From Thermoproteota archaeon (GTDB lineage Archaea; Korarchaeota; Korarchaeia; Korarchaeales; Korarchaeaceae), in assembly GCA_015522685.1 (NCBI GenBank), contig WALU01000057.1, positions 1 to 23,220 on the forward strand: DNA of 23,220 bases, written 5' to 3'. The notes under the pieces were generated by a model. It was not told the origin of the DNA, did no database searches, and was given only the letters and a program-made list of their open reading frames with translations. This document shows, piece by piece, positions 4,826-23,220 of this stretch. The position numbers and the translations under genes are program-made. Numbering within the stretch: position 1 is the first letter of the stretch; each line of letters begins with the position of its first letter.

Positions 4826-5083
4826 ATATTATTTACCACTCCTCCCCCATTTTTATATACCAAGCTATACACCTATGAGTTCAGGATTACCCATGAATAA
4901 GGAAACTCCTGGTCATTCTCCAGCTACTTTACATAATATCAATATTATGTAAATTATAGTAAGGCTGAAATTACTGATTATCACCTCTATCGGAATCATG
5001 CGCCGATGAACGTGAAGTAGAGGATGATGACACTACTGGTAGAAGCGTTAACTATTTTTAGGAGTTTAGGTGTATTTGTGTTA

Positions 5084-5190
5084 GTGGGTACCGGGGGAGC
5101 TGGGGGGAGAACCCGGCTGAGAGGGCGGCTAGTCTGCCGCCGACCCCTCGAACCTGATCCGGGTAATGCTGACGTAGGGAGCGTGCCCGC
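5084..5190 (+). ncRNA. TPP (thiamine pyrophosphate) riboswitch aptamer
   Basis: Consensus elements GGGG...CTGAGA...ACCC...AACCTGATCCGGGTAATGC..CGTAGGGA. Stems: P3 agctggg/cccggct, an extra ggcggc/gccgcc hairpin, and P1 gtgggtac/gtgcccgc. It lies directly upstream of thiB, with a TATA-like TATTTTTA at 5053-5060. Confidence 0.93.
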
Positions 5191-5211
5191 GGCTCCTTAT
5201 GCTGGCTCAGC

Positions 5212-5233
5212 CTCTCCAGTGCCCGCTGGAGGG
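5212..5233 (+). promoter_or_regulatory. SD-sequestering hairpin (riboswitch expression platform)
   Basis: CTCTCCAG (5212-5219) pairs with CTGGAGGG (5226-5233), covering the GGAGG SD of the thiB ATG at 5241. Confidence 0.75.
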
Positions 5234-5240
5234 TAGCAAT

Positions 5241-6344
5241 ATGAGGTTAAGTGGTAAATGGATTGTGAGCTTAGCCATAATCGTGATAGTGGTTTTGGGT
5301 CTAGCTTACTGGGTTCTTACATTCCAGCCAAGCGGAGAGAGAAAGCTTGTGATCTATACATACGAAAGCCTCCTCAAGTGGGGCGATAATCCGAACGCAA
5401 CTAGAAAGGTAGTGTTCGGGGAGTTCGAGCGCAGATATAACTGTAAGGTGGAGATAAGGGAGTTCGATGATGCCAGAACGGCTCTGCTTGCAGTTATTCA
5501 GGAAAAGAATAAGCCGAAGGCCGACGTGATTATAGGCATTGATAACGTGCTCGTGCATGAGGCTATACAGGCTGGTGTGTTGGAACCTTACACCCCAGAG
5601 AACCTGAAATATGTGCACGATTGGCTCATCAAATCTCTAGATCCAACGCATCACGTTGTTCCCTATGATTATGGCCTCATAGCTTTAGTCTATGATAGTA
5701 AGAGGTTGTCCCCTGATAAGATGAAAGGTCTGACCTTCGAGAAACTGGCCTCTAAGGAATATGCTTCTAAGCTCATCTCTGAAGATCCAACGATCAGCAG
5801 CACGGGCATCAACTTTCTGCTATGGGGGATAGCCTACTACAAGATGAAGGGAGGTGACTGGAAGGATTGGTGGAGACAAGCCATGAAGAATGGGCTTAAA
5901 GTCGTGGGAAGCTGGGGAGATGCCTATGATATATTCTTGGATGAGAAGCAAGGAAGACCCGTTGTCGTTAGCTACGGAACGGATGGCGCTTACTCTTACC
6001 ATTTCTACAATGCGACGAGGTACAAGGCTGCTTTGATCACAATCAATGGGGAAGAATGGGGATGGCTCCAGATAGAGGGCTTGAGTATAGTCAGGAACGC
6101 TCCTCATAAAGAGTTGGCTGAGAAATTCGTGAACTACTTCCTGAGTAATGAGGTGCAGCAGTACATCCCGCTGAACAACTGGATGTATCCGGCAAATAAG
6201 AACGTGAAGCTTCCAGAGGAATATGTAAAGTACGCCCTGGATCCGACCAGGATAAAACTGTTCAATGAAGTACTGGCATCTGAAGAGGTGGGAAAGAATC
6301 TTAAGACATGGCTAGATGAATGGAGGAAGACTGTTGGATCATAA
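5241..6344 (+). CDS. thiB: Thiamine ABC transporter substrate-binding protein
   Basis: Motifs LVIYTYES, ADVIIGIDN, PYDYG, DPTISSTG, WGDAY, VVSYGTD, LQIEG and IPLNNWMYP; TPP riboswitch upstream; start ATG 5241 has an SD. Confidence 0.92.
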   Translation: MRLSGKWIVSLAIIVIVVLGLAYWVLTFQPSGERKLVIYTYESLLKWGDNPNATRKVVFGEFERRYNCKVEIREFDDARTALLAVIQEKNKPKADVIIGIDNVLVHEAIQAGVLEPYTPENLKYVHDWLIKSLDPTHHVVPYDYGLIALVYDSKRLSPDKMKGLTFEKLASKEYASKLISEDPTISSTGINFLLWGIAYYKMKGGDWKDWWRQAMKNGLKVVGSWGDAYDIFLDEKQGRPVVVSYGTDGAYSYHFYNATRYKAALITINGEEWGWLQIEGLSIVRNAPHKELAEKFVNYFLSNEVQQYIPLNNWMYPANKNVKLPEEYVKYALDPTRIKLFNEVLASEEVGKNLKTWLDEWRKTVGS

Positions 6345-8587: not shown

Positions 8588-9856
8588 TTAGATGAGCTTC
8601 TTGAGGTCCTTTATTTTGAGATCCTTTAGGATGGATCCTAGGATGCTTGGAGGATAATCACCAAGGCCTATCACTGAAGCCTTCTTCCTCGGCCATACGA
8701 CATCTGACTCTAAGGATACCTCATAGTAGAGGGTGAAGGATTTAGGCGCATTATTTACCCTCGCCTTCTCCCCTGGGAAAAGGACCTTGTTTATGGTTAT
8801 CTCCTGATCTCCTTGTGCTAGCTTCTCCACCTTTATTGGCCTATTCCAAGAATTCTTTATTGTAAGTTCCCCATTCCACTCTAAGGAGACATGTTCTCCC
8901 AGCTGGAGGGTTCTCCCAAATACCTGAACTATTGGCTCCGCTTTTATGAGCTTTCCATCTGAGACCTTAGCTATCATTTGTAGCCTGTAATCCACATCCA
9001 TTACGTAAAGGTACTTATCAGAGTACTCAGCCAGCACTCCCTGATAGAGCTTAATCTCTCCCTCTACATCATCTACTCTAACTGTGATCAATCTGCCTAT
9101 GCTGTTTTCCAGGAGAGGATCGTATGTTTGCGTTATGGCACTCTCTAATGTCTTTTTCTCCGCTTCTTCAAGTGATTTCTTAAGATTGGGGGGAATAATT
9201 GTTGTGATAGTTCCTGCCGTTGATGTTAGAGCAGATGCTATCTTGTCCTTGACGTAGCTCAGGGCATTATACGTTCTCCTCTTGGCTACTTTGATGAAAG
9301 GCCTGCTATATAATTCGCTTAGCTCCTTCCATCTTCTCTTTCTCTCCTCTTCGCCCATAAAGTCAACAAAACTAACTATCATCCAGAGATCATTAAGCTC
9401 GCTTGAGTATACCTTCCTAGACACAAGGCTAGGAGGAGACCATGGATTTACTCTTATATCCTTCTCGGTCAGTTTATCTTCAACGAGTTCGAACCTCTTA
9501 AGGTAGTTTAGTATGACTCTAGCCTTCTCCAAGAATCTCTCGTTCCCTGTTTCGTGGTAATTTTTCATGAGAAAGGCGACTAGTGAGAGGGGATTTTTCA
9601 TACCTTCTTTCATATAAAATATCTCAAAACCGCCACCTCCTCTAGGCAGGATATGTAGCTTTCCATAGTGAGCTTCTTTTCCTATGAAAACGAAGGTCTT
9701 TCTACCTTTGACGAGCTTTAGTACTCTATCCATGGAAAACATGTTTACTAAAGAAAATAGGAAAGATATTATCACACCTAGGACTATAAGATAGATAAGA
9801 GGTAATATCGACTGCAGAGTGGAGGAAAAAGATAGTGATTCCTGCATCAACAGCAC
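8588..9856 (-). CDS. Hypothetical protein with an N-terminal TM anchor
   Basis: 422-aa ORF with one N-terminal hydrophobic helix, 13 nt downstream of the S9 peptidase. ATG 9847, preceded by an AAGGTG SD, is an alternative start. Confidence 0.8.
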   Translation of the reverse strand: MLLMQESLSFSSTLQSILPLIYLIVLGVIISFLFSLVNMFSMDRVLKLVKGRKTFVFIGKEAHYGKLHILPRGGGGFEIFYMKEGMKNPLSLVAFLMKNYHETGNERFLEKARVILNYLKRFELVEDKLTEKDIRVNPWSPPSLVSRKVYSSELNDLWMIVSFVDFMGEEERKRRWKELSELYSRPFIKVAKRRTYNALSYVKDKIASALTSTAGTITTIIPPNLKKSLEEAEKKTLESAITQTYDPLLENSIGRLITVRVDDVEGEIKLYQGVLAEYSDKYLYVMDVDYRLQMIAKVSDGKLIKAEPIVQVFGRTLQLGEHVSLEWNGELTIKNSWNRPIKVEKLAQGDQEITINKVLFPGEKARVNNAPKSFTLYYEVSLESDVVWPRKKASVIGLGDYPPSILGSILKDLKIKDLKKLI

Positions 9857-9869
9857 CTTATCTACCGTT

Positions 9870-11750
9870 TTACTTTGACTTCAGATGATTATCCAGCCAT
9901 TCTATTATCTTCTCCAGCCTTATGATTCTATGTTTAGGCTTGCCCTTTCTGCTCAGATCATGATCCTCTTCAGGGAATAGGACAAGCTCTGTATCAATTC
10001 CTCTTGATTTTAAAGCCGTAAAAAGCTCTAAAGCCTGGCTCAGCCAACATCTATAGTCATCCAAGCTATGGATTATGAGTGTTGGGGTCTTAACCTTGTC
10101 AACATAGGTTATAGGACTCTTCTCCCAATAAACTTGAAAGTTCTCCCATGGAGTACCTCCTATATGCTCTGGGTTGAAGAAGAAGCCTATATCCGTCGTT
10201 CCATAATCACTTATCCAGTCACTTATGCTTCTCATTGTTATGGCAGCCTTGAACCTATCCGTATGCCCTATTATCCAGTTGGCCATGAAACCACCATAGC
10301 TCCCTCCCATTACTGCTAGCCTATCGGGGTCAGCTAGTCCCATCCCAATAACTTCATCTACAGCTTCCATCAGGTCCTGATAATCCCTCTCACCATAATG
10401 CTTTCTTATATCCCTGAATTCTTCTCCATAGCCCTCGCTTCCTCTTGGATTAGTGAATATGACAGCATAGCCCCTATCCCTGAGGAGGTAAAGCTCGTGC
10501 ATGAAGGCATAACCAAATGCTGTGGCTGGTCCTCCATGTATATATAGGACCGTCGGGAAGGGTGGTTCTCCATCATCAGGCCTCAAGATAAATCCTTCTA
10601 TCTTGACTCCATCGCTTGCTAAGAAGGAGAATCTATTTGGCTTAGGTAACTTCACTCTCTTATTAAATCCACCATTAAGATCTGTTAACTTGATTAACCT
10701 ATCTGCTAGCTCATAGATCTCTGCTGGTTTATCTATTCTCATTAAGTTGAGAACTATCCTCCCAGCCTTGGCATCAAAGCCTTCTATTGAGACGTCTTCG
10801 TTGATCAACTGTACCAGATTCCCATCGTTAGCATAAAGATGAACTGATGTTCCATCGTGTATTGTGAAATACCATTTTCCATTCATCCATTTAGGCCTCT
10901 GATCGCTTCCTCCCCTAACATCACTGTTTAAGCTATTTCCTAGACTTCTATTCATCGGAGATTTATCTTCAGGCCTCCAATTATCTATTGAAGTCTCATA
11001 GAGATGTTCATTGGTAGCAAGACCCCTTCTTCTATCATGTCCAACGATTCCTAGAACTCTTCCATTATTCCCCCAGTTAACAGATTGAAGGAACCAGTTG
11101 CCTGGCCCTATCTCATATCTATTGCTTCCATCCATGGAACTTATGAAGAGACTTACATCTAAAGGCTTTGATTTATCTTTTAGAGATAAAAAAGCCACCT
11201 TTTTACCATCAGGTGATGGCATGAAATCCTTAATGTACATTCCGTCCGGGGAGATCGGCCATTTCTCACCTGTATTCAGATCTATCCCATAAAGCCTGCT
11301 TACATACCAGTAGGTCCATCCCTTTCCATTCTTCCAGAAGGGGATCGTCTTTATTACCTTAACATCTTCTTCCTTATCTCCTTCATTTAATGCAGCAACT
11401 GCTATTCTTTCAGATGCCCATTCAGCTCTGCTTATTCCATTTTTCCACCTGAAGACAACTAGCTTTTCCCCATTCGGAGTGAACATTACAAGCTCATCCT
11501 CACTATCGCTCTTCCTGATGAAGATGAATCTCTTCCCCTGAGGCTCCCATGAAGGATCTCCGTCTCTTGGTCCTTCCGTAATGGGAATTGGTCTTTCACC
11601 AAGCTTCATACTCCATATTCTATAATCATACATGTTCTTATTAAGATCAGCCCTACCAGCGCGGAATGCAATGAATTCTCCATCGAATCTCAATTTAGGC
11701 GGACCTATAAGCACTACTCTAGAGAAATCATCCAGTTCGATGGATCGCAT
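9870..11750 (-). CDS. S9 family serine peptidase (acylaminoacyl/dipeptidyl peptidase, S9C-like)
   Basis: Beta-propeller-like N-terminus, IHGGP, NPRGSEGYG, the nucleophile motif GGSYGG, DYRC and catalytic His in EDHDL. Confidence 0.95.
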   Translation of the reverse strand: MRSIELDDFSRVVLIGPPKLRFDGEFIAFRAGRADLNKNMYDYRIWSMKLGERPIPITEGPRDGDPSWEPQGKRFIFIRKSDSEDELVMFTPNGEKLVVFRWKNGISRAEWASERIAVAALNEGDKEEDVKVIKTIPFWKNGKGWTYWYVSRLYGIDLNTGEKWPISPDGMYIKDFMPSPDGKKVAFLSLKDKSKPLDVSLFISSMDGSNRYEIGPGNWFLQSVNWGNNGRVLGIVGHDRRRGLATNEHLYETSIDNWRPEDKSPMNRSLGNSLNSDVRGGSDQRPKWMNGKWYFTIHDGTSVHLYANDGNLVQLINEDVSIEGFDAKAGRIVLNLMRIDKPAEIYELADRLIKLTDLNGGFNKRVKLPKPNRFSFLASDGVKIEGFILRPDDGEPPFPTVLYIHGGPATAFGYAFMHELYLLRDRGYAVIFTNPRGSEGYGEEFRDIRKHYGERDYQDLMEAVDEVIGMGLADPDRLAVMGGSYGGFMANWIIGHTDRFKAAITMRSISDWISDYGTTDIGFFFNPEHIGGTPWENFQVYWEKSPITYVDKVKTPTLIIHSLDDYRCWLSQALELFTALKSRGIDTELVLFPEEDHDLSRKGKPKHRIIRLEKIIEWLDNHLKSK

Positions 11751-16195: not shown

Positions 16196-17185
16196 TCATT
16201 TCACCAAAAACCATCTTTTCGGCTTTATCTCAAAGGTCTCCTTAGGAATCGATGAGAGCCATATCTCAAACTGCGAGCCCCATCCATCTCTAACCATCAC
16301 CCTATATCCAGATCGATGCCTCGATGAGGCCGTTACCTTAACCTTGATTCCAGGACCTATCTCCACATCTTCTGGGTAAAATCCTATTCTGATCGCTTGC
16401 AGCCCCTTTCTATACAGTACGGTAAGGTTTTCCAAGGAGTAAAGGCCTCCATCTCTCTCCTTCAGCTCTATTATGTTCGCTCCTAAGAAGCGAGCTACGA
16501 ACTCATCTCTGGGATTAGTAACAACTTCGCTCACACTTCCCTCCCTCACTATCCTGCCGTCTTTCATCACAGCAAGTCTTTCAGCTAGGGACATTGCCTC
16601 CACTTGATCGTGGGTGACATGAAGGGCAGTGAATCTCCTCTCAACCCATAGCCTCTTTAGTTCCCAGAGGAGCTCTTCCTTCAATTTGGCATCCAGAGAA
16701 CCGAATGGCTCATCCAACAAGAGTATATCTGGATTTGGGGCCAATGCTCTGGCTATTGCTACCCTCTGCTGCTGTCCTCCTGAGAGCTGATGAGGATACC
16801 TGCTTTCCAAACCCTTAAGCTTCAAAATCTCGATGAATTCCTTGGCTATTCTTATTGACTCCTTCCTGCTTAGTCCTCTGGCCTCTAATCCGAACATGAC
16901 GTTTTCCAGAACTGTCATATGTGGGAAGAGAGCTAGATCTTGAAACACCATACCAACATTTCTAACGGAGCTTGGAAGCTGGGTTACGTCCCTACCACTG
17001 AACATTACTTTACCGGAATCAGGAGTTTCCAAGCCAGCTATTATCCTGAGGAGAGTCGTCTTTCCGCTCCCACTTGGGCCTACTACAGCCATTATTATGC
17101 CATTAGGGATGAACAAGTTGACTCCGTTGAGAGCTACCGTTTCTCCAAATCTCTTACTAATGTTGATCACTCTGATCTCAGCCAT
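16196..17185 (-). CDS. thiQ: ABC transporter ATP-binding protein (thiamine/iron/polyamine class), probable ThiQ
   Basis: Walker A GPSGSGKTT, signature LSGGQQQRVA, Walker B LLLDEP and HVTHD; overlaps the ThiP-like permease. Confidence 0.8.
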   Translation of the reverse strand: MAEIRVINISKRFGETVALNGVNLFIPNGIIMAVVGPSGSGKTTLLRIIAGLETPDSGKVMFSGRDVTQLPSSVRNVGMVFQDLALFPHMTVLENVMFGLEARGLSRKESIRIAKEFIEILKLKGLESRYPHQLSGGQQQRVAIARALAPNPDILLLDEPFGSLDAKLKEELLWELKRLWVERRFTALHVTHDQVEAMSLAERLAVMKDGRIVREGSVSEVVTNPRDEFVARFLGANIIELKERDGGLYSLENLTVLYRKGLQAIRIGFYPEDVEIGPGIKVKVTASSRHRSGYRVMVRDGWGSQFEIWLSSIPKETFEIKPKRWFLVK

Positions 17186-18711
17186 AGTAAACCTACCTCT
17201 ATTCTAGACTTCACCAAGAGGAAGGTCCATGTAAGTATCATAATGATGAACGATGCTGCAGCAGCCAACTGAAACCTCCTCGCTCCTGAATATCTTAAAG
17301 CAGCTACTGTTAACGTTAATGTTTCAGGGGTTGCTAGGAGAGTGGATGCAGATGTTTCAGATAACGATATTGCTAAGGAATAGAAGGCTGCAGATAGAAC
17401 TACTGGAAGAGCTGCTGGAAGCAGCACCTTGAATATAGCATCTAGCCTGCTGGCTCCCAAAGTTTCAGCTGCATCCATGAGATGCGACGATATACCAGAT
17501 ACACCTGATTCGAGGGATCTTATAGCAAAGGGAAAGGCTATGAGGACATGGCTCATTACTATGGCGATCCATCCCGGAATTCCCAGCTCCGAGCTGAACA
17601 GGAATAGTCCAAGAGCCAAGGTAATGGAGGAAGTTCCAAGAGGAAGTATAGATAGATCTCTAGCCAGTTTTCTAGCTTTATTGGATAGGAGAATGAGGGA
17701 GGATAACGTCAGAACTATTAGAGCTGTCATGAATGCAAAAAATAGGCTGTTAAGCAAGGGTCTAATGGTAGAAACTCCTAAAATAGGATCATATCTAGGA
17801 ATGAGGAAATCTAGATAGACTAGGGGGTCAAACTTCCCCGTGTAGGGGCTAAATATTGACTTAAGGAAAAGGTATCCTATAGGATAAAGTGCTACTACAG
17901 ATAGGGTATATGGAATGATCAGCAATGGTAGGAGGGATTTTGGTAGGATTCTCCTCCTCCTGAGTTCCATGGCCCTAGCCAGTTTAGCTCTCCTACTCAT
18001 GAGGATGGAGAGCAGGAAGGTTACGATCAGCTGTAGAATGGCGGCAGCTGAAGCCTTACCTTCATCGAGGAATATCTTGTACAGCGAGTATATTTCGACT
18101 TCCAGCGTTCTGGAGCCAGGACCTCCAAGCAGAAGGGGTACTGCAAAACTAGCAAAGCTTAAAGTGAATGTGAGGATGAACCCGTAGCTCACCCCCCTTA
18201 AGCTGAGGGGGAGTATTATCTTCCTCCATTTCATCCATTTCGAGGCCCCAAGAACATCAGCAGCTTCCTCTATTCTCTTTCCAACCGTTAATAGAGAAGA
18301 TGAGATCATTTGAGCGCAGAAACCGAAGTTGAAATAGGCATTCGCTAGAGAGATGGCCAGTAGGCCCGGTGTTAGAAGGCCTACCCTCACCATCAGGAGG
18401 AAAGCAAGAGCAACGGAGATTGTGGGCATAGTGAATGGAACTAAGGTAGCCATTTCAACGATACGCCTCCCTGGATAATCATACGTTGCGTTTAGGTAAC
18501 CTAGCGGTATAGCTAGAGCTATTGCCATCAAAGATGCGAGGATAGCCTCCTCCAAGGAGAATACGATGGCTGATTGTATGGATGGATCAGCAAGGGTATC
18601 TACTAGATGAGGAATTCCCATCCCTAAGAGGGGCACTATTATGAGAGTCCAGATTACCGGTATGATGAGGGAGGAGATGAGAGCCGATAAGCGATCCCAC
18701 CTCCTCCCCAT
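17167..18711 (-). CDS. thiP: Double-domain ABC permease, ThiP-like
   Basis: Motifs YPGRR...PFTMP, LANAYFN, two EAA loops (EEAADVLGAS, DAAETLGAS), LLLGGP..TLEVEIY and SHVLIAFPF. Start is probably ATG 18711 with a GGTGA SD. Confidence 0.82.
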   Translation of the reverse strand: MGRRWDRLSALISSLIIPVIWTLIIVPLLGMGIPHLVDTLADPSIQSAIVFSLEEAILASLMAIALAIPLGYLNATYDYPGRRIVEMATLVPFTMPTISVALAFLLMVRVGLLTPGLLAISLANAYFNFGFCAQMISSSLLTVGKRIEEAADVLGASKWMKWRKIILPLSLRGVSYGFILTFTLSFASFAVPLLLGGPGSRTLEVEIYSLYKIFLDEGKASAAAILQLIVTFLLSILMSRRAKLARAMELRRRRILPKSLLPLLIIPYTLSVVALYPIGYLFLKSIFSPYTGKFDPLVYLDFLIPRYDPILGVSTIRPLLNSLFFAFMTALIVLTLSSLILLSNKARKLARDLSILPLGTSSITLALGLFLFSSELGIPGWIAIVMSHVLIAFPFAIRSLESGVSGISSHLMDAAETLGASRLDAIFKVLLPAALPVVLSAAFYSLAISLSETSASTLLATPETLTLTVAALRYSGARRFQLAAAASFIIMILTWTFLLVKSRIEVGLLWLRSE

Positions 18712-19177
18712 GAAGTCACCCAGATTCACCATTGGGACATATAAATAACATTAATCTCATTTCCTTGACCTAGGAAAGAGTTCGTCCTGCTGCCGAGATA
18801 TAGACCGGTATCTTCTTCGTTAGACTCGGATGTATTGATAAAGGAAGTTGCTAAGCATGATACAGCTGAAAACTTCTCCATGTAGGCGCATAATTCTACC
18901 GATAGAAAGTTTTAAACTACTAGATCACCTCATTCTATGCTTTTTGGGTAGTAAATTCATTTGGGGTCTATGAGTTGCTTCTCTTTCATTCTCGAGAGGT
19001 TCTTAGGATCGGATGATAATGAAATCCTTAGATACATTAAACTGACGCTTAAGCCTCCAGTAACTAGTTTGGATTATTCCCGAGTGTTTCGCGCGCGGAG
19101 AGTGATGATGCGATCTCTCCTCAAGAGTATAGGAAAGTAGAACTCCTGAGAAGAAATTTCTAATCCTAACCATCATC

Positions 19178-19891
19178 TCAGGAGAAAAGAGTTATTACTA
19201 GACCCACGGCGAGATTTGGTAGGGTAGAGGACACAAGGGCCTTGGAGGGGGATAACCTTGTTACTAGCCTAAGCCCTATATAGTACAACGAGATAACTAG
19301 ATTTTCAACTATTTTTCCTAATCTAAGTAAACCTTGTAAGTAGGCTCTGTACCGAATAGGATCCTTAGCAACCGATAACTGCATGGGTAGAGTTCGCCAA
19401 TCCATCACTAAGGGAATTGCATAAATCAAATAAACAATAGAATTTATTTTAAGCAAATCATTGTATCTTACATCCATTTCCTCAGAGAGAAATATGCAGA
19501 GAAGCCATTCAAGCAGTGAGAAGAAGAATACTCCAAAGAATTGGGATAAAAATGTAGAGAGACCTATAAAAGCCAATGCTACAGCATTAGCATTTGAAAA
19601 GAGAAGCCCTGCTTTGAAGCTTGCCTCTACGCCTGTAAATATGGATAGGATCAAAACTCCGGTCAGAGGTATTAACATGCTTACATCATTTACTTTCAGG
19701 GCAATTTTCCCTCCTCCAGAACTCTTAGGGAGGATTATAGAGACAGCAAGAGCTAGTAAAAATCCGCTGGCCTGTGATAGCAGCGCATCTAGAAGTACTT
19801 TTTCTGTGCCAAATGAGAGGAGCATGATTGAACTAGTTAAAAAGAAGGAGATGGCGAGGGCTATATCGTATCTGTTCATCTTACCACTCAC
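19178..19891 (-). CDS. Multi-TM membrane protein (Yip1-like topology), partner of SpoIIM/DUF95
   Basis: 237 aa with about 6-7 TM segments; overlaps the upstream SpoIIM gene. The Yip1 assignment rests on topology and context only. Confidence 0.6.
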   Translation of the reverse strand: MSGKMNRYDIALAISFFLTSSIMLLSFGTEKVLLDALLSQASGFLLALAVSIILPKSSGGGKIALKVNDVSMLIPLTGVLILSIFTGVEASFKAGLLFSNANAVALAFIGLSTFLSQFFGVFFFSLLEWLLCIFLSEEMDVRYNDLLKINSIVYLIYAIPLVMDWRTLPMQLSVAKDPIRYRAYLQGLLRLGKIVENLVISLYYIGLRLVTRLSPSKALVSSTLPNLAVGLVITLFS

Positions 19892-20399
19892 ACGCTATAT
19901 AAGGTGTTATTTTCCACTCAATAAGGGCCCCGATAATAAGAAGGATGTATGATAATATGATAGATCTCTTGTAACACAATATACTAGAGGGATTGTGATC
20001 TTTGCTCAACCTATAAGAAGCAATGAGGGATGCATAAGAGATGGTTATGAGCCATGTCAATTCAAATATTGCATGAGGGATAATCAGCTTTAGAGTGAGA
20101 ATAAAGGGTCGGCTTCTCAGTAGATAGCCCATTATGAACCCGTTTAATGCTACGAGGGATAAAGTAAGTACCCCGTAGGTCAGATACCCTATAAGAAGAA
20201 GAGCAAAGACCGACGTATTCCTGAGCATGATTAGCATCAAATTTGCCCTCTTCAATCCATTGCAAGATATTTCAGCAGGTTTGTCATTCAGCAAGTATCC
20301 AACAAAGATGGATATTGATAAGACGAACAGTATGGCAAAGAGGGCAAGAGCACGCCAGCGCAGAGGAACTGCACTGATCCGCTGAGGCACAATACTCAC
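19881..20399 (-). CDS. SpoIIM/DUF95 family membrane protein (copy 2)
   Basis: Pattern I..RN....L...G..T.G........NG.I.G, plus IIPHAIFEL and GALIE..ITP. Confidence 0.88.
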   Translation of the reverse strand: MSIVPQRISAVPLRWRALALFAILFVLSISIFVGYLLNDKPAEISCNGLKRANLMLIMLRNTSVFALLLIGYLTYGVLTLSLVALNGFIMGYLLRSRPFILTLKLIIPHAIFELTWLITISYASLIASYRLSKDHNPSSILCYKRSIILSYILLIIGALIEWKITPYIACEW

Positions 20400-20430
20400 C
20401 CTTTAAGAGTTTAACCTATGTCTACACTAC

Positions 20431-20766
20431 TTATTGCTGATTGCTAGGCCTCCTCTTCCTCTCACTTATTTTCGGCCCTATACCTGTGATCCTCAGTATA
20501 GCATCTATGAAAGTGCCGGTGATAGTAATCCCAGCTATGCTTAACAGAATATCGATAAGGGTGTTTCCTGTGAAAGGAACTGTTACGATAGATGTAATGA
20601 TCGCCGCGAAAGCTAAAAAGGATATGGAGTTCACGCCCACGGATGGGAAGTACCTCCCTTCTATCTCCCTTCTCCTCCTTACATAAATCACAAGAATCAA
20701 CAAAAGCGCCAGACCAAAAAGGAAGAGAGGGAAGTTGAAGCTCATAGAATCCCTCGTTCTATTCAT
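20431..20766 (-). CDS. Small cationic 3-TM protein, paralog B (immunity-like candidate)
   Basis: Shares YFPSVG, FTGNTLIDIL and GIGPKI with the adjacent ORF. Confidence 0.75.
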   Translation of the reverse strand: MNRTRDSMSFNFPLFLFGLALLLILVIYVRRRREIEGRYFPSVGVNSISFLAFAAIITSIVTVPFTGNTLIDILLSIAGITITGTFIDAILRITGIGPKISERKRRPSNQQ

Positions 20767-21067
20767 ATCCTTTCATCTTCCTTATTCTCGGCCCTATCCC
20801 CATTAGCTCCATGACTATGTCTAGAGCAGACGTCATTCCCCATCCAAAGACTATAGGAATCAAAATATCAAGTAAAGCATTTCCTGTAAAGGTTATACCC
20901 TCCGATAGGGAGCTAAGGATTACTCCGACTCCTATGTAAGAGATGATCCTGAGACCGAGAGATGGATAGTACTTCTTATACTTTCTCTTTCTCCACAGGA
21001 GGTATATAGAGTAGGCTGCTACATAACTTATGCCAAAGAAGAGAAGGGAGATATGAAGGAAATCCAT
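20759..21067 (-). CDS. Small cationic 3-TM protein, paralog A (immunity-like candidate)
   Basis: Contains YYPSLG, FTGNALLDIL and GIGPRI; GGGGGAT SD, 12 nt after the upstream peptide stop. Confidence 0.78.
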   Translation of the reverse strand: MDFLHISLLFFGISYVAAYSIYLLWRKRKYKKYYPSLGLRIISYIGVGVILSSLSEGITFTGNALLDILIPIVFGWGMTSALDIVMELMGIGPRIRKMKGYE

Positions 21068-21079
21068 AGCTATCCCCCT

Positions 21080-21325
21080 TTAGAGCCATACAGCTGCGCC
21101 TATGGCGAAATTAACCCAGCACGATATGGCGATACCAAGAGGGAGAGCCATATAGCTGCCTAGGGTCATATAAGCAGAGCCTAGGAGAAAGTAGCCGAAG
21201 CTTTCCCTTCCATAGTAATATGAAATGTATGCACCTACAGTACTGCTTGGTTCTTCTATTAATATTAGAGATGGAAAGAGCAAAGATAGCATGAGAAAAC
21301 TGATTAACGCATGCCACCTTTTCAT
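21080..21325 (-). CDS. Small hydrophobic secreted peptide; candidate circular-bacteriocin-like precursor
   Basis: 81 aa from ATG 21325: signal-like leader MKRWHALISFLMLSLLFPSLILIEEPSST, then a Gly/Ala/aromatic-rich core ending GAAVWL. It is the first gene of an operon containing SpoIIM. Confidence 0.6.
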   Translation of the reverse strand: MKRWHALISFLMLSLLFPSLILIEEPSSTVGAYISYYYGRESFGYFLLGSAYMTLGSYMALPLGIAISCWVNFAIGAAVWL

Positions 21326-21469
21326 ATGAAGAATACATGGGATCTCCTTTATCATTTTTTTTTAAAAAATTGTCGAATTTACCTTCACCTATTGACGTTA
21401 TGCGTTGCTTGCTTATGTTACGTCGTTGGGTTAGTTACCATGCGATATTATGCCGATTCGTACCTAGGT

Positions 21470-21680
21470 ATTCCTTCCTATTTCCTTACTTCCCTTCGGC
21501 CTCGAGCCAAATAACATATACCAGAACTTAAATATTAGTGCTGCCTTTAGGCAATTATCGCGCGATAATCTTCGTGTGCAATCCGGTAAATTTGGATGAG
21601 GTCCGCCTCTCCTTCGTTATGAGATCTTCAGGCATAGAGTCGTTATACTGGCTAAGGATGGTAAGCGCGTCACGATCTAA
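21470..21680 (+). pseudogene. Decayed minimal nucleotidyltransferase (MNT) gene
   Basis: Across frameshifts: ..LF.Y.FG(S)RAK.. (ttcggcctcgagccaaa, 21495-21511), then VNLDE/PPLLRYEIFRHRVVILAKD (21586-21659), a typical MNT C-terminal motif. Confidence 0.5.
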
Positions 21681-21723
21681 TAACTTAGAGGCTTAAAAAC
21701 TGATGCATGTGCATGGAGGAAGA

Positions 21724-22284
21724 TTAGCTTCTCACTATATGCTGAGCCACTATCTTTGGGTAGTAAATTCTCAGAAATAAATCGATGATAAGCAGAAGAG
21801 TTATCATCACCGCACCTTCTTTCTCTTTTATTGTATATTCCTTACTGATGGATTTATAGAAGTAGATAAATGATGAGAGAGAAAATAGTGTATCTACCAA
21901 CATTTTGGTTAAGGAATACGTCTCAATTTCTGTTGCCATTATAGGAAAGAGCATTAGATCTACCGCAAATGATATTGATGCGAAAAGGAAGTATATGGAT
22001 ATCTTGTTCAATATGTGGGAGAGCGGACCTCTATATACGCCTCTGTAGAAAAGGAAGAGGTAGGATGACGTACCCAGCAGACTCCAGAGTAGAGCGCCGC
22101 TGAGCCCGCTCCCCAGCAATACGAAGTATGCTATGAAAGGAAGAGGAATGGAAAGATCTGGTGGGATTAACTTGCCTAGGACGAAGATCAGATACATAGA
22201 TTGGATGATTACGTAAAGTAGATAGAGGAGAAAGACCCTTCTCCCGCTAGCCTCTGTTGATGATTCTCGATCATCCTCATCCAT
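21724..22284 (-). CDS. 5-TM membrane protein (Yip1-like topology), partner of SpoIIM/DUF95
   Basis: 186 aa with five hydrophobic helices; overlaps the upstream SpoIIM gene by 8 nt. Confidence 0.65.
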   Translation of the reverse strand: MDEDDRESSTEASGRRVFLLYLLYVIIQSMYLIFVLGKLIPPDLSIPLPFIAYFVLLGSGLSGALLWSLLGTSSYLFLFYRGVYRGPLSHILNKISIYFLFASISFAVDLMLFPIMATEIETYSLTKMLVDTLFSLSSFIYFYKSISKEYTIKEKEGAVMITLLLIIDLFLRIYYPKIVAQHIVRS

Positions 22285-22825
22285 TTAACCCCACCAACAG
22301 ACATGGGATGGATATGTAATATTCTATAACTGAAGAGACCGTTATGATAAATAGACTTAAGATGACTAGCTTAATTAAATAAATTAGTTGATACTTAGAG
22401 ATGGCAAAGAGATCCATACCGTAGATAACTGCTATGATGCTCGAAAGTCCTACAGATGAGGATAGTAAGATGGAAGTGACTTCTAACGGCCCATGAAATA
22501 GAAAGCAGATAAGTGCGCCACCTAAATTCTCACTGAGCATCTCCTTAAGAATGCTACCTACTATCATACCGTTGAAGCTCAGAGATAGGGCTGTAAGTGT
22601 TCCAAATGTCACGTATCCTAGAGAGAGGATTAATATAGTGAAGCAGTTTGAAAATAGGAGCCCGTATAGATCGTAATGCTCCTCTAAGTAGGGCAAGTGG
22701 GATCCCTGGCTTGCCCATTTCATATGAGAAGGACCTGCCACGAAGAAGCTTCCTAATATCCCAGCTGTGTAGAAAAGAGAGGCTAGTATCAACCCTTTAC
22801 TTATTCCCTGCCTCCTTCTTTCCAT
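22277..22825 (-). CDS. SpoIIM/DUF95 family membrane protein (copy 1)
   Basis: Contains LFSNCF..L.LSLGYVTFG...LSFNGMIVG, FHGPLEV and SSVIEYYIS. Confidence 0.85.
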   Translation of the reverse strand: MERRRQGISKGLILASLFYTAGILGSFFVAGPSHMKWASQGSHLPYLEEHYDLYGLLFSNCFTILILSLGYVTFGTLTALSLSFNGMIVGSILKEMLSENLGGALICFLFHGPLEVTSILLSSSVGLSSIIAVIYGMDLFAISKYQLIYLIKLVILSLFIITVSSVIEYYISIPCLLVGLNG

Positions 22826-23219
22826 AGCTCGCCCTCCTAATAGCCTCTATCCTCTTCTCCAAGCTGGGATGAGTTGGCAGGAAGGAAGGAGATTCCTTTA
22901 TCCTGTATATCTTGATTAGAGCATTTATCAAATCCTCTGGATTTGTATAAGAGGCTGCTATCAGATCAGCCCTAGTCTCCCTCCTTCTTATCAGGATCAG
23001 GAAGATGGAGAGCGTTGCTAGGAAGCCAGCTATAAACACGATAAGGATCACAATAGATCCATTCGGCAAACCCATTATGGATATGATTTCGCCGATGAGG
23101 AGAAGCGTCACATACATGAGCAGGCTGTAGCCTAAGTACCGGATGATGTCTCCTCCCATATAGTGGCCCAACTCATGAGCCAGTACGCTTTCAAGCTCGC
23201 CCTCTGACAGTTCGCTTAA
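22797..23219 (-). CDS. M48 (HtpX/Ste24-like) membrane zinc metallopeptidase, C-terminal part; 5' end lies beyond the window
   Basis: The frame is open to the window edge: LSEGELESVLAHELGH (HExxH), RRRETRADLIA (third ligand E) and PTHPSLEKRI. Confidence 0.92.
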   Translation of the reverse strand, partial: LSELSEGELESVLAHELGHYMGGDIIRYLGYSLLMYVTLLLIGEIISIMGLPNGSIVILIVFIAGFLATLSIFLILIRRRETRADLIAASYTNPEDLINALIKIYRIKESPSFLPTHPSLEKRIEAIRRASYGKKEAGNK

Positions 23220-23220
23220 C

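Follow-up and report, generated by a model that had tools for sequence, protein, structure and literature searches.

SpoIIM small-peptide cassettes in a korarchaeal genome and their resemblance to circular-bacteriocin loci

Two SpoIIM cassettes at the end of a korarchaeal contig

What do the eight minus-strand open reading frames (ORFs) at positions 19178-23220 of a korarchaeal contig do together, and do they form a gene cluster for an archaeal circular bacteriocin, as a first-pass annotation had proposed? The window analysed here is the whole of contig C57 (WALU01000057.1; 23,220 bp), from a 1.48-Mb archaeal metagenome-assembled genome that is 92% complete; we call this genome G000, and G002, G019, G020 and so on are the relatives with which it was compared. 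Reading from the contig end, the ORFs encode an M48 peptidase, SpoIIM_A and TM5, and then a small peptide (pep91), two cationic proteins (cat102 and cat111), SpoIIM_B and TM237. All eight are co-oriented as previously placed, with coordinates, overlaps and a 368-nt gap in agreement. They fall into two blocks, 368 nt apart and tied by overlaps of 8-29 nt (29 nt for M48/SpoIIM_A, 8 for SpoIIM_A/TM5, 8 for cat102/cat111 and 11 for SpoIIM_B/TM237), and such overlaps indicate operons. The single cluster of the first-pass annotation is in fact two adjacent, separate SpoIIM cassettes, A and B, since cassette A occurs in G002 and G020 without any of the cassette B genes beside it. Both arrangements exceed chance, because the gene trio of A and the layout of B recur in relatives. 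We tentatively favour a reading of these cassettes as bacteriocin-like (archaeocin) modules for peptide production and self-protection, comparable to circular-bacteriocin loci, a possibility that falls just short of probable; the earlier reading of the locus as a circular-bacteriocin cluster is partly supported.

Cassette A opens with a truncated gene for an M48 zinc peptidase of the HtpX-like kind (22797..23220, minus strand). Its C-terminal 140 aa remain, in a frame still open at the contig end; judged by full-length relatives of 316-323 aa, the N-terminal ~180 aa and the upstream DNA have been lost. The fragment contains the HEXXH motif (as HELGH) and a downstream ExxAD (as ETRAD), and it matches PF01435 with 72.1 bits (E 6.7e-20) against a cut-off of 20.3 bits. 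Next come SpoIIM_A, a stand-alone SpoIIM/DUF95 protein of 182 aa (22277..22825, minus strand; PF01944, 1.4e-11), and TM5 (21724..22284, minus strand), an orphan polytopic membrane protein of 186 aa with 4-5 hydrophobic segments, recognised from its ORF and hydrophobicity. The M48 assignment and both SpoIIM/DUF95 assignments made earlier are thereby borne out at the curated cut-offs, which for PF01944 is 26.9 bits, and the other five proteins of the two cassettes have no Pfam or NCBIfam family. The M48-SpoIIM-TM5 trio is kept at 52-66% identity in two of the 40 relatives (G002 and G020), giving three of the 41 genomes searched, and orthologues of SpoIIM_A (62-64% identity) were found in the same two only. 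The families are small: TM5 falls in just 3 clusters among 5.8 billion proteins, and in 185,579 species genomes the M48 subfamily is represented by just 3 close loci. In G002 and G020, a gene for an 81-aa Ala/Gly-rich hydrophobic peptide (pep81) lies 10 nt upstream of M48; the same position in the window falls beyond the contig end.

A tblastn search of G000 with the N-terminus of the G002 M48 and with pep81 found the missing part on no other contig. The one DNA run that matches the stretch is a hydrothermal-vent metagenome; five short pieces among its contigs match, none of them past the window end, and a loose end on one resembles what we take to be a sequencing-adapter remnant. Scanning metagenome contigs with the M48 fragment returned just distant M48 genes (28-38% identity) and not a longer contig of this locus. 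Proteins identical to TM5 and pep91 are encoded on a 58,966-bp contig represented in the protein collection.

Cassette B begins with the small hydrophobic peptide, whose longest ORF encodes 91 aa (pep91; 21080..21355, minus strand). A product of 81 aa starting at ATG 21325 is more likely, and the protein collection lists pep91 as an 81-aa product that matches this second ATG. The leader of the peptide is basic and hydrophobic like a signal sequence. Further features are a YYYGR motif, a hydrophobic C-terminal half rich in Gly and aromatic residues, and the tetrapeptide FAIG 5 residues from the end. Its leader-like segment covers ~25-30 residues and the remainder ~52-58, an outline that a plain protein with three transmembrane (TM) segments would share and in which no cleavage site can be fixed.

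Downstream of the peptide are cat102 (20759..21067; 102 aa, pI 9.6, net charge +5) and cat111 (20431..20766; 111 aa, pI 11.4, net charge +7), both on the minus strand and both without a family. That they are two paralogous small cationic membrane proteins, as had been claimed, is upheld by 36% identity (E 7e-14), by their pI values and by three hydrophobic segments in each. They are followed by SpoIIM_B (19881..20399, minus strand), a second stand-alone SpoIIM/DUF95 protein, of 172 aa, with the conserved motifs PH.I.E and IE..ITP (PF01944, 3.4e-12); it is 46% identical to a paralogue on contig C38 and 28% identical (E 8e-10) to the SpoIIM of cassette B in G002. The last gene encodes TM237 (19178..19891, minus strand), an orphan polytopic membrane protein of 237 aa with ~6-7 hydrophobic segments, again recognised from ORF and hydrophobicity. 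TM237 has only 5 representatives in 1.84 billion proteins, and its homologues in G002 and G019 (31-33% identity) adjoin SpoIIM.

The same layout is seen in G002:C1 and G019:C38, where an 86-aa peptide (pep86) is followed by a small cationic 2-TM protein, SpoIIM and the TM237 homologue. An initial search of the relatives with the 91-aa peptide found none, and these positional homologues were reached only by way of TM237; aligned directly, pep91 and pep86 share ~26-30% identity, their leaders and YYY[GS]R motifs being in register (E 4e-4). At both of these loci cassette B is flanked by ORFs whose translations, by eye, resemble a PIN-type toxin and a small antitoxin.

Are the polytopic proteins Yip1-like, as the first-pass annotation proposed to check with PF04893? 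Neither TM5 nor TM237 is detectably so: they do not match PF04893 at E<=1, and hhalign comparison with the genome's own Yip1 proteins gave a probability below 1% from alignments of 2-4 sequences. The Yip1 hidden Markov model does match three other loci of the genome. A comparison of TM237 with TM5 by hhalign likewise gave no support, with alignments of 2-4 sequences. As a weak lead, the ESM Atlas clusters nearest to the polytopic proteins contain Yip1 in 13-16% of their members, at scores of 0.88-0.90.

The intergenic gap between the cassettes (21356..21723) contains neither an Rfam family nor a tRNA. At 21356-21369, ~37 nt upstream of ATG 21325, is a T6A8 box, which from its sequence is likely to be a TATA-type archaeal promoter for cassette B. 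The window is syntenic with its closest relative, G019 (80-90% identity at the protein level), between position 8588 and the ABC (ATP-binding cassette) permease at 18732, where the synteny ends; past this break G019 has unrelated genes and no cassette at that place.

Accessory SpoIIM cassettes in the genus and their peptides

G000 has six PF01944 matches, which are five stand-alone SpoIIM proteins and one RDD-SpoIIM fusion, and three M48 matches. The fusion is the housekeeping SpoIIM: it has 493 aa (PF06271 plus PF01944; C18:15566-17047) and occurs once in all 29 genomes of the phylum that are at least 85% complete, at a length of ~475-577 aa. Within the genus, PF01944 is matched in 18 of the 21 genomes, the other three being 63-78% complete, and in 15 of the 21 genomes searched the housekeeping copy is alone. 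Extra, stand-alone copies occur only in G000 (5), G002 (4), G020 (2) and G019 (1). We inspected these 12 accessory loci of four genomes, leaving out weak or short hits at G044:C21, G030:C82 and G024:C33. Restriction to a few genomes of the genus, the synteny break at the cassettes, decayed copies and tiny families all mark the stand-alone SpoIIM cassettes as accessory and fast-evolving.

Five layouts can be distinguished. Layout A (peptide, M48, SpoIIM, TM5) is that of cassette A in the window, G002 and G020, and layout B (peptide, small cationic protein or proteins, SpoIIM, TM237) that of the window, G002:C1 and G019:C38. Layout C consists of a peptide of 102/103 aa, SpoIIM, a protein with five TM segments, an ABC ATPase of 215 aa and two more membrane proteins; it occurs in G002 and G020, and contig C25 (3.4 kb) of G000 has a rearranged version. 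The ATPase is of the exporter type, with CcmA and DrrA as its best NCBIfam matches, and cassette C satisfies the three-gene rule used in circular-bacteriocin mining, as given in the accessible text of PMC8534725 and PMC8659200. Layout D, at G002:C6, has a 94-aa peptide, a 4-TM protein and SpoIIM. Layout E, at G000:C18:52394-55050, has a 113-aa protein, a 97-aa peptide (pep97, with GFTIA), a 113-aa paralogue of the first protein, a 223-aa SpoIIM and a full-length M48 of 316 aa; the two 113-aa proteins have three TM segments and are 40% identical. With A and E, G000 has two separate loci that pair M48 and SpoIIM, in differing gene orders.

Some copies have decayed. The cassette at C38:18104-19579 comprises a 94-aa 2-TM protein, SpoIIM and a frameshifted TM237 homologue, and C51:8467-9130 holds TM237-like fragments with stop codons; we conclude that both of these TM237 copies are decayed. 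The C38 cassette lies between genes for tRNA-Cys/Arg/Gly and tRNA-Leu, opposite MoxR-like AAA and VWA genes. The arrangement in G002 hints that its cassettes C and A share a variable island of ~16 kb. A tRNA-Met gene and LAGLIDADG-type homing-endonuclease-like ORFs, recognised by eye, are found between those two cassettes (L030 4371-5442; G002:C4:156000-172000).

A leader-bearing hydrophobic peptide gene is present in 10 of the 12 accessory cassettes, the other two being cassette A of the window, which is cut, and C38, where none is recognisable. SpoIIM and M48 genes do therefore occur with small hydrophobic peptides, and in both intact loci orthologous to cassette A the peptide precedes M48. 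At all 10 loci the N-terminus of the peptide resembles a leader in being basic and hydrophobic, and the C-terminal part is hydrophobic and rich in Gly and Ala. BLAST finds no significant similarity between peptide families A, B, C and D, and each family falls in just 2 clusters among 5.8 billion proteins. The tetrapeptide F[TLA]I[GA] occurs within the last 30 residues of eight of the 10 peptides, at 0-5 residues from the end in seven and at 21 in pep97. As background, 499 small TM ORFs of G000 include four with the motif in their last 30 residues, three of these being SpoIIM-linked peptides, and larger membrane ORFs of the genome have it in 6 of 300. By eye, only pep81 fits the K/R-G/A cleavage pattern of a class III (prepilin-type) signal, and this candidate was rejected for the peptide N-termini.

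By their codon changes, the peptide genes of the relatives are under purifying selection. For pep81 the ratio of non-synonymous to synonymous rates (dN/dS) is 0.11 (19 synonymous and 7 non-synonymous differences), and for pep86 it is 0.10 (9 and 3); the changes in pep103 (1 synonymous, 5 non-synonymous) are too few to judge. In the pep81 family residues 1-29 take nearly all of the substitutions, and the sequence after them hardly varies.

Comparison with known systems and competing explanations

Circular-bacteriocin clusters share a precursor, a small cationic hydrophobic immunity protein, an ABC ATPase with a membrane protein, and DUF95, according to the accessible part of PMC6131525. The first-pass annotation had called SpoIIM/DUF95 a hallmark of these clusters, together with cationic immunity proteins, and the same source reports it in all known clusters. 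Its statement that some clusters carry Yip1-like proteins or M48 peptidases is also confirmed, by a YIP1 protein in the cerecyclin cluster (PMC8534725) and M48 peptidases in a few clusters (PMC8659200), in the text open to view. The cutting and ligation of circular bacteriocins still lack an explanation, and the role of DUF95/SpoIIM is unproven (PMC6131525, same portion). In the accessible text of the mining papers, circular-bacteriocin clusters come from Firmicutes, Actinobacteria and Thermotogae only (PMC8534725), and archaea are named nowhere (PMC8659200).

Like the clusters of Bacillota (AS-48, carnocyclin A, leucocyclicin Q, gassericin A and cerecyclin), the korarchaeal cassettes have SpoIIM/DUF95 beside a precursor-like gene with an N-terminal extension, our criterion for a precursor being an N-terminal leader of 2-48 residues. 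They likewise have small cationic hydrophobic proteins and an extra polytopic membrane protein, and cassette C adds an ABC ATPase with membrane partners. The core of a circular bacteriocin has ~58-70 residues. In contrast to the bacterial clusters, the host is archaeal, the peptides have no sequence relation or detectable fold relation to known precursors, and the leaders resemble Sec signals or TM helices. The window cassettes also differ in being without an ATP-binding protein, which cassette C has, and their candidate immunity proteins are of 102-111 aa with three TM segments. We consider cat102 and cat111 candidate immunity or accessory subunits by analogy, as they are small, cationic and hydrophobic like circular-bacteriocin immunity proteins but without homology to any of these.

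The closest archaeal precedent is formed by the cassettes of arCOG01996, a DUF95/COG1300 paralogue, which in the accessible text of PMC4158269 and PMC5898192 combine it with Yip1 and with small 3-TM proteins that evolve fast. Some of these cassettes lie close to ABC transporters of the SalXY type, and the reported hosts are Archaeoglobi, Methanococci and Thermococci. The cassettes have been read as defence (PMC4158269) or as membrane remodelling (PMC5898192), again in the text open to view. The word 'bacteriocin' does not occur in PMC5898192 (2015), and its sole mention in the accessible text of PMC4158269 (2014) concerns a different locus. The first-pass annotation made no mention of these published archaeal DUF95 'dark matter' cassettes. 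The korarchaeal cassettes resemble them in having a stand-alone SpoIIM paralogue besides the housekeeping copy (five in G000) and in grouping it, in variable islands, into cassettes of 3-4 genes with a polytopic partner and small, strongly diverged proteins of ~3 TM segments. Unlike the arCOG01996 cassettes, with their Yip1 (PF04893) partner, those of the window have polytopic partners that are not detectably Yip1; M48, present in korarchaeal cassettes, is not mentioned in section 3.3 of PMC5898192, and the class of peptides with a leader and FxIG, like the host in Korarchaeia, is a further difference. The match is one of architecture, the two being likened by description.

The SpoIIM of B. 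subtilis, part of the SpoIID/M/P engulfment complex, has PF01944 in common with the window proteins and a different gene context, and archaea lack peptidoglycan, unlike the setting of B. subtilis SpoIIM. In addition, archaea have no SpoIID or SpoIIP homologues, as stated in the accessible part of PMC5898192. HtpX-type M48 peptidases, with HEXXH and ExxAD motifs and TM helices between, share PF01435 with the window M48. Unlike HtpX, the latter belongs to a narrow subfamily, and its gene shares an operon with those for SpoIIM and a small peptide; HtpX models are its best matches in NCBIfam, yet far under every equivalog cut-off.

In the literature open to view, which leaves aside subscription journals and supplements, we found no description of an archaeal circular bacteriocin and nothing that ties the DUF95 'dark matter' cassettes to bacteriocin biosynthesis. 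What is new here is that Korarchaeia have SpoIIM small-peptide cassettes, which have multiplied and diversified there, and that one of these has an M48 of its own.

Several lines of argument favour peptide production and immunity. The recurring set of peptide, SpoIIM, polytopic and cationic proteins mirrors circular-bacteriocin clusters, and the many divergent copies, the absence from most relatives, the decay and the fast divergence are typical of conflict systems. The cassettes have a characteristic gene content and a kept order, their peptides show purifying selection in relatives and a shared C-terminal motif, and their distribution is patchy. By analogy, the peptides would be processed, exported and toxic, with immunity of the producer; head-to-tail cyclisation is suggested purely by analogy. 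The gene content and layout agree in part with the maturation, export and immunity system proposed by the first-pass annotation; no exporter is present in the window cassettes, and the adjoining ABC genes are those of an importer.

A number of results weigh against this reading. Searches with pep91, pep81, pep86, pep102/103 and pep94 found no bacteriocin family in Pfam or NCBIfam at E<=10, in keeping with the earlier remark that the peptide family was not one it recognised, and pep81 has no bacteriocin match among Protein Data Bank (PDB) sequences at E<=10. As modelled by AF2, pep91 and pep81 form three long helices at low confidence (predicted local distance difference test, pLDDT, 60.7 and 65.4), unlike the compact bundle of 4-5 helices of solved circular bacteriocins, and three helices are also expected of a plain small 3-TM membrane subunit. 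A Foldseek search of both models against PDB gave nothing at E<=0.001 and no bacteriocin in the rows listed. The FxIG motif is absent from pep86 of both G002 and G019, and as it was defined post hoc on these very peptides its statistics are inflated. cat102 and cat111 have no homologues outside this genome (with cat111 as query, the 40 relatives gave just one weak, unrelated match at E<=0.01), and typical immunity proteins are smaller than either. Close M48 homologues stand without SpoIIM or peptide at L038 (55% identity) and L039 (70%), and no RNA run that contains the stretch is listed. No ATP-binding protein for export or ligation is encoded in 19178-23220. The ABC genes that adjoin cassette B carry BPD_transp_1 permease domains, those of a binding-protein-dependent (BPD) importer. 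The first-pass annotation had noted the absence of the usual ABC ATPase and suggested that it may lie upstream, which would be past the contig end; the sister cassette C has one of the exporter type. Prediction of a complex from alignments of SpoIIM_B and the peptide scored 0.00, with a partner pLDDT below 50 in at least one run, and speaks neither for nor against this reading.

The importer genes deserve a description of their own. A BPD-type permease and ATPase occupy 16196-18732 of the window, and their G002 homologues adjoin a homologue of a solute-binding protein (SBP). In the window the SBP gene itself (SBP_bac_1) lies at 5199-6344, directly downstream of a thiamine pyrophosphate (TPP) riboswitch at 5083-5198 on the plus strand (RF00059, 61.2 bits; gathering score 54.3). 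Importer domains, the SBP neighbourhood in G002 and the riboswitch together point to thiamine-type uptake rather than to a 'missing' exporter, and they suggest that the SBP and the distant permease and ATPase form a split, riboswitch-controlled ABC importer of the thiamine type in an archaeon. Elsewhere in the window, a peptidase of the S9 prolyl-oligopeptidase family (626 aa; 9870-11750, minus strand; PF00326, 1.6e-61) is followed by a 422-aa protein (8588-9856, minus strand) with no Pfam family at E<=1e-5.

How else might the cassettes be explained? The main rival, which we regard as unlikely, takes them for structural membrane complexes, that is, lineage-specific assemblies for membrane remodelling or vesicles in which SpoIIM would be the scaffold and the small proteins, pep91 among them, would be lasting 3-TM subunits. 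A role in remodelling or vesicle formation was inferred in PMC5898192 (accessible text) for archaeal COG1300 paralogues that share cassettes of 3-4 genes with small, strongly diverged 3-TM proteins and with a polytopic protein, and a SpoIIM scaffold would resemble the DMP engulfment complex of B. subtilis. The three helices in the AF2 models of pep91 and pep81, the three hydrophobic segments in each of cat102, cat111 and the C18 113-aa pair, and the lack of an exporter in the window would all suit such a complex. It would not be expected of a cell machine, however, to exist in five divergent copies in one genome and to be missing from most of the genus, nor to show decayed copies and a position at a synteny break. 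The structural explanation also leaves without a role the exporter-type ABC ATPase of cassette C, the dedicated M48, the leader-like N-termini and the shared C-terminal motif.

Less likely than the structural complex are defence and coincidence. An improbable alternative is a membrane defence against viruses or mobile elements, with the small proteins as sensors of, or barriers to, infection and with SpoIIM and the peptidase as effectors. It draws on arCOG01996 being among the commonest families of archaeal dark-matter islands (PMC4158269, accessible text), on the patchy distribution, and on genomic settings such as the PIN-type toxin-antitoxin-like ORFs seen by eye beside cassette B in G002 and G019 and the tRNA genes on either side of the C38 cassette; yet none of the eight window proteins matches a PADLOC model at E<=0.01, the cassettes of the window have no nuclease, ATPase or sensor domain, and PHROGs gives generic metalloprotease matches only, for the M48 fragment. 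Slightly less probable still, in our view, is that unrelated genes have come to be neighbours, with M48-SpoIIM-TM5 an HtpX-like quality-control unit and the rest coincidental small membrane proteins. The M48 fragment does match HtpX models best, far under their cut-offs, the close homologues at L038 and L039 occur alone, and the genome has a third, canonical HtpX-like M48. Set against this are the joint occurrence of SpoIIM and peptide in 10 of 12 accessory cassettes, M48-SpoIIM pairs at two loci of G000 and also in G002 and G020, and the gene overlaps, which point to operons; presence in three of 41 genomes misfits a housekeeping role.

A proposed mechanism and its significance

If the cassettes are bacteriocin-like production and self-protection modules, as we tentatively favour, the peptide would be brought to the membrane by its leader. 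In cassette A the M48 peptidase would cut this leader off, and in the other cassettes a general signal peptidase would do so. Maturation or release of the peptide might then fall to SpoIIM and its polytopic partner, and cat102 and cat111 would protect the producer. A further step, which we think improbable, is that the cassettes make truly head-to-tail cyclised archaeocins, with M48 as the peptidase for the leader or a C-terminal follower and FxIG as the recognition or ligation signal for SpoIIM. Were this so, the SpoIIM-peptide pair would be an ancient maturation system of both prokaryotic domains, and the M48 of the cassette would fill a role, that of the processing peptidase, for which no enzyme is known from bacterial circular-bacteriocin clusters.

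A compact archaeal version, with a zinc peptidase beside peptide and SpoIIM and with several peptide families that have one motif, would offer a minimal comparative system for the role of SpoIIM. If the structural explanation is true, the cassettes would still be an undescribed membrane module of fast turnover. As bacteriocin-like modules, they would give the Korarchaeia, a hot-vent lineage without cultured members, their first proposed system of peptide antagonism.

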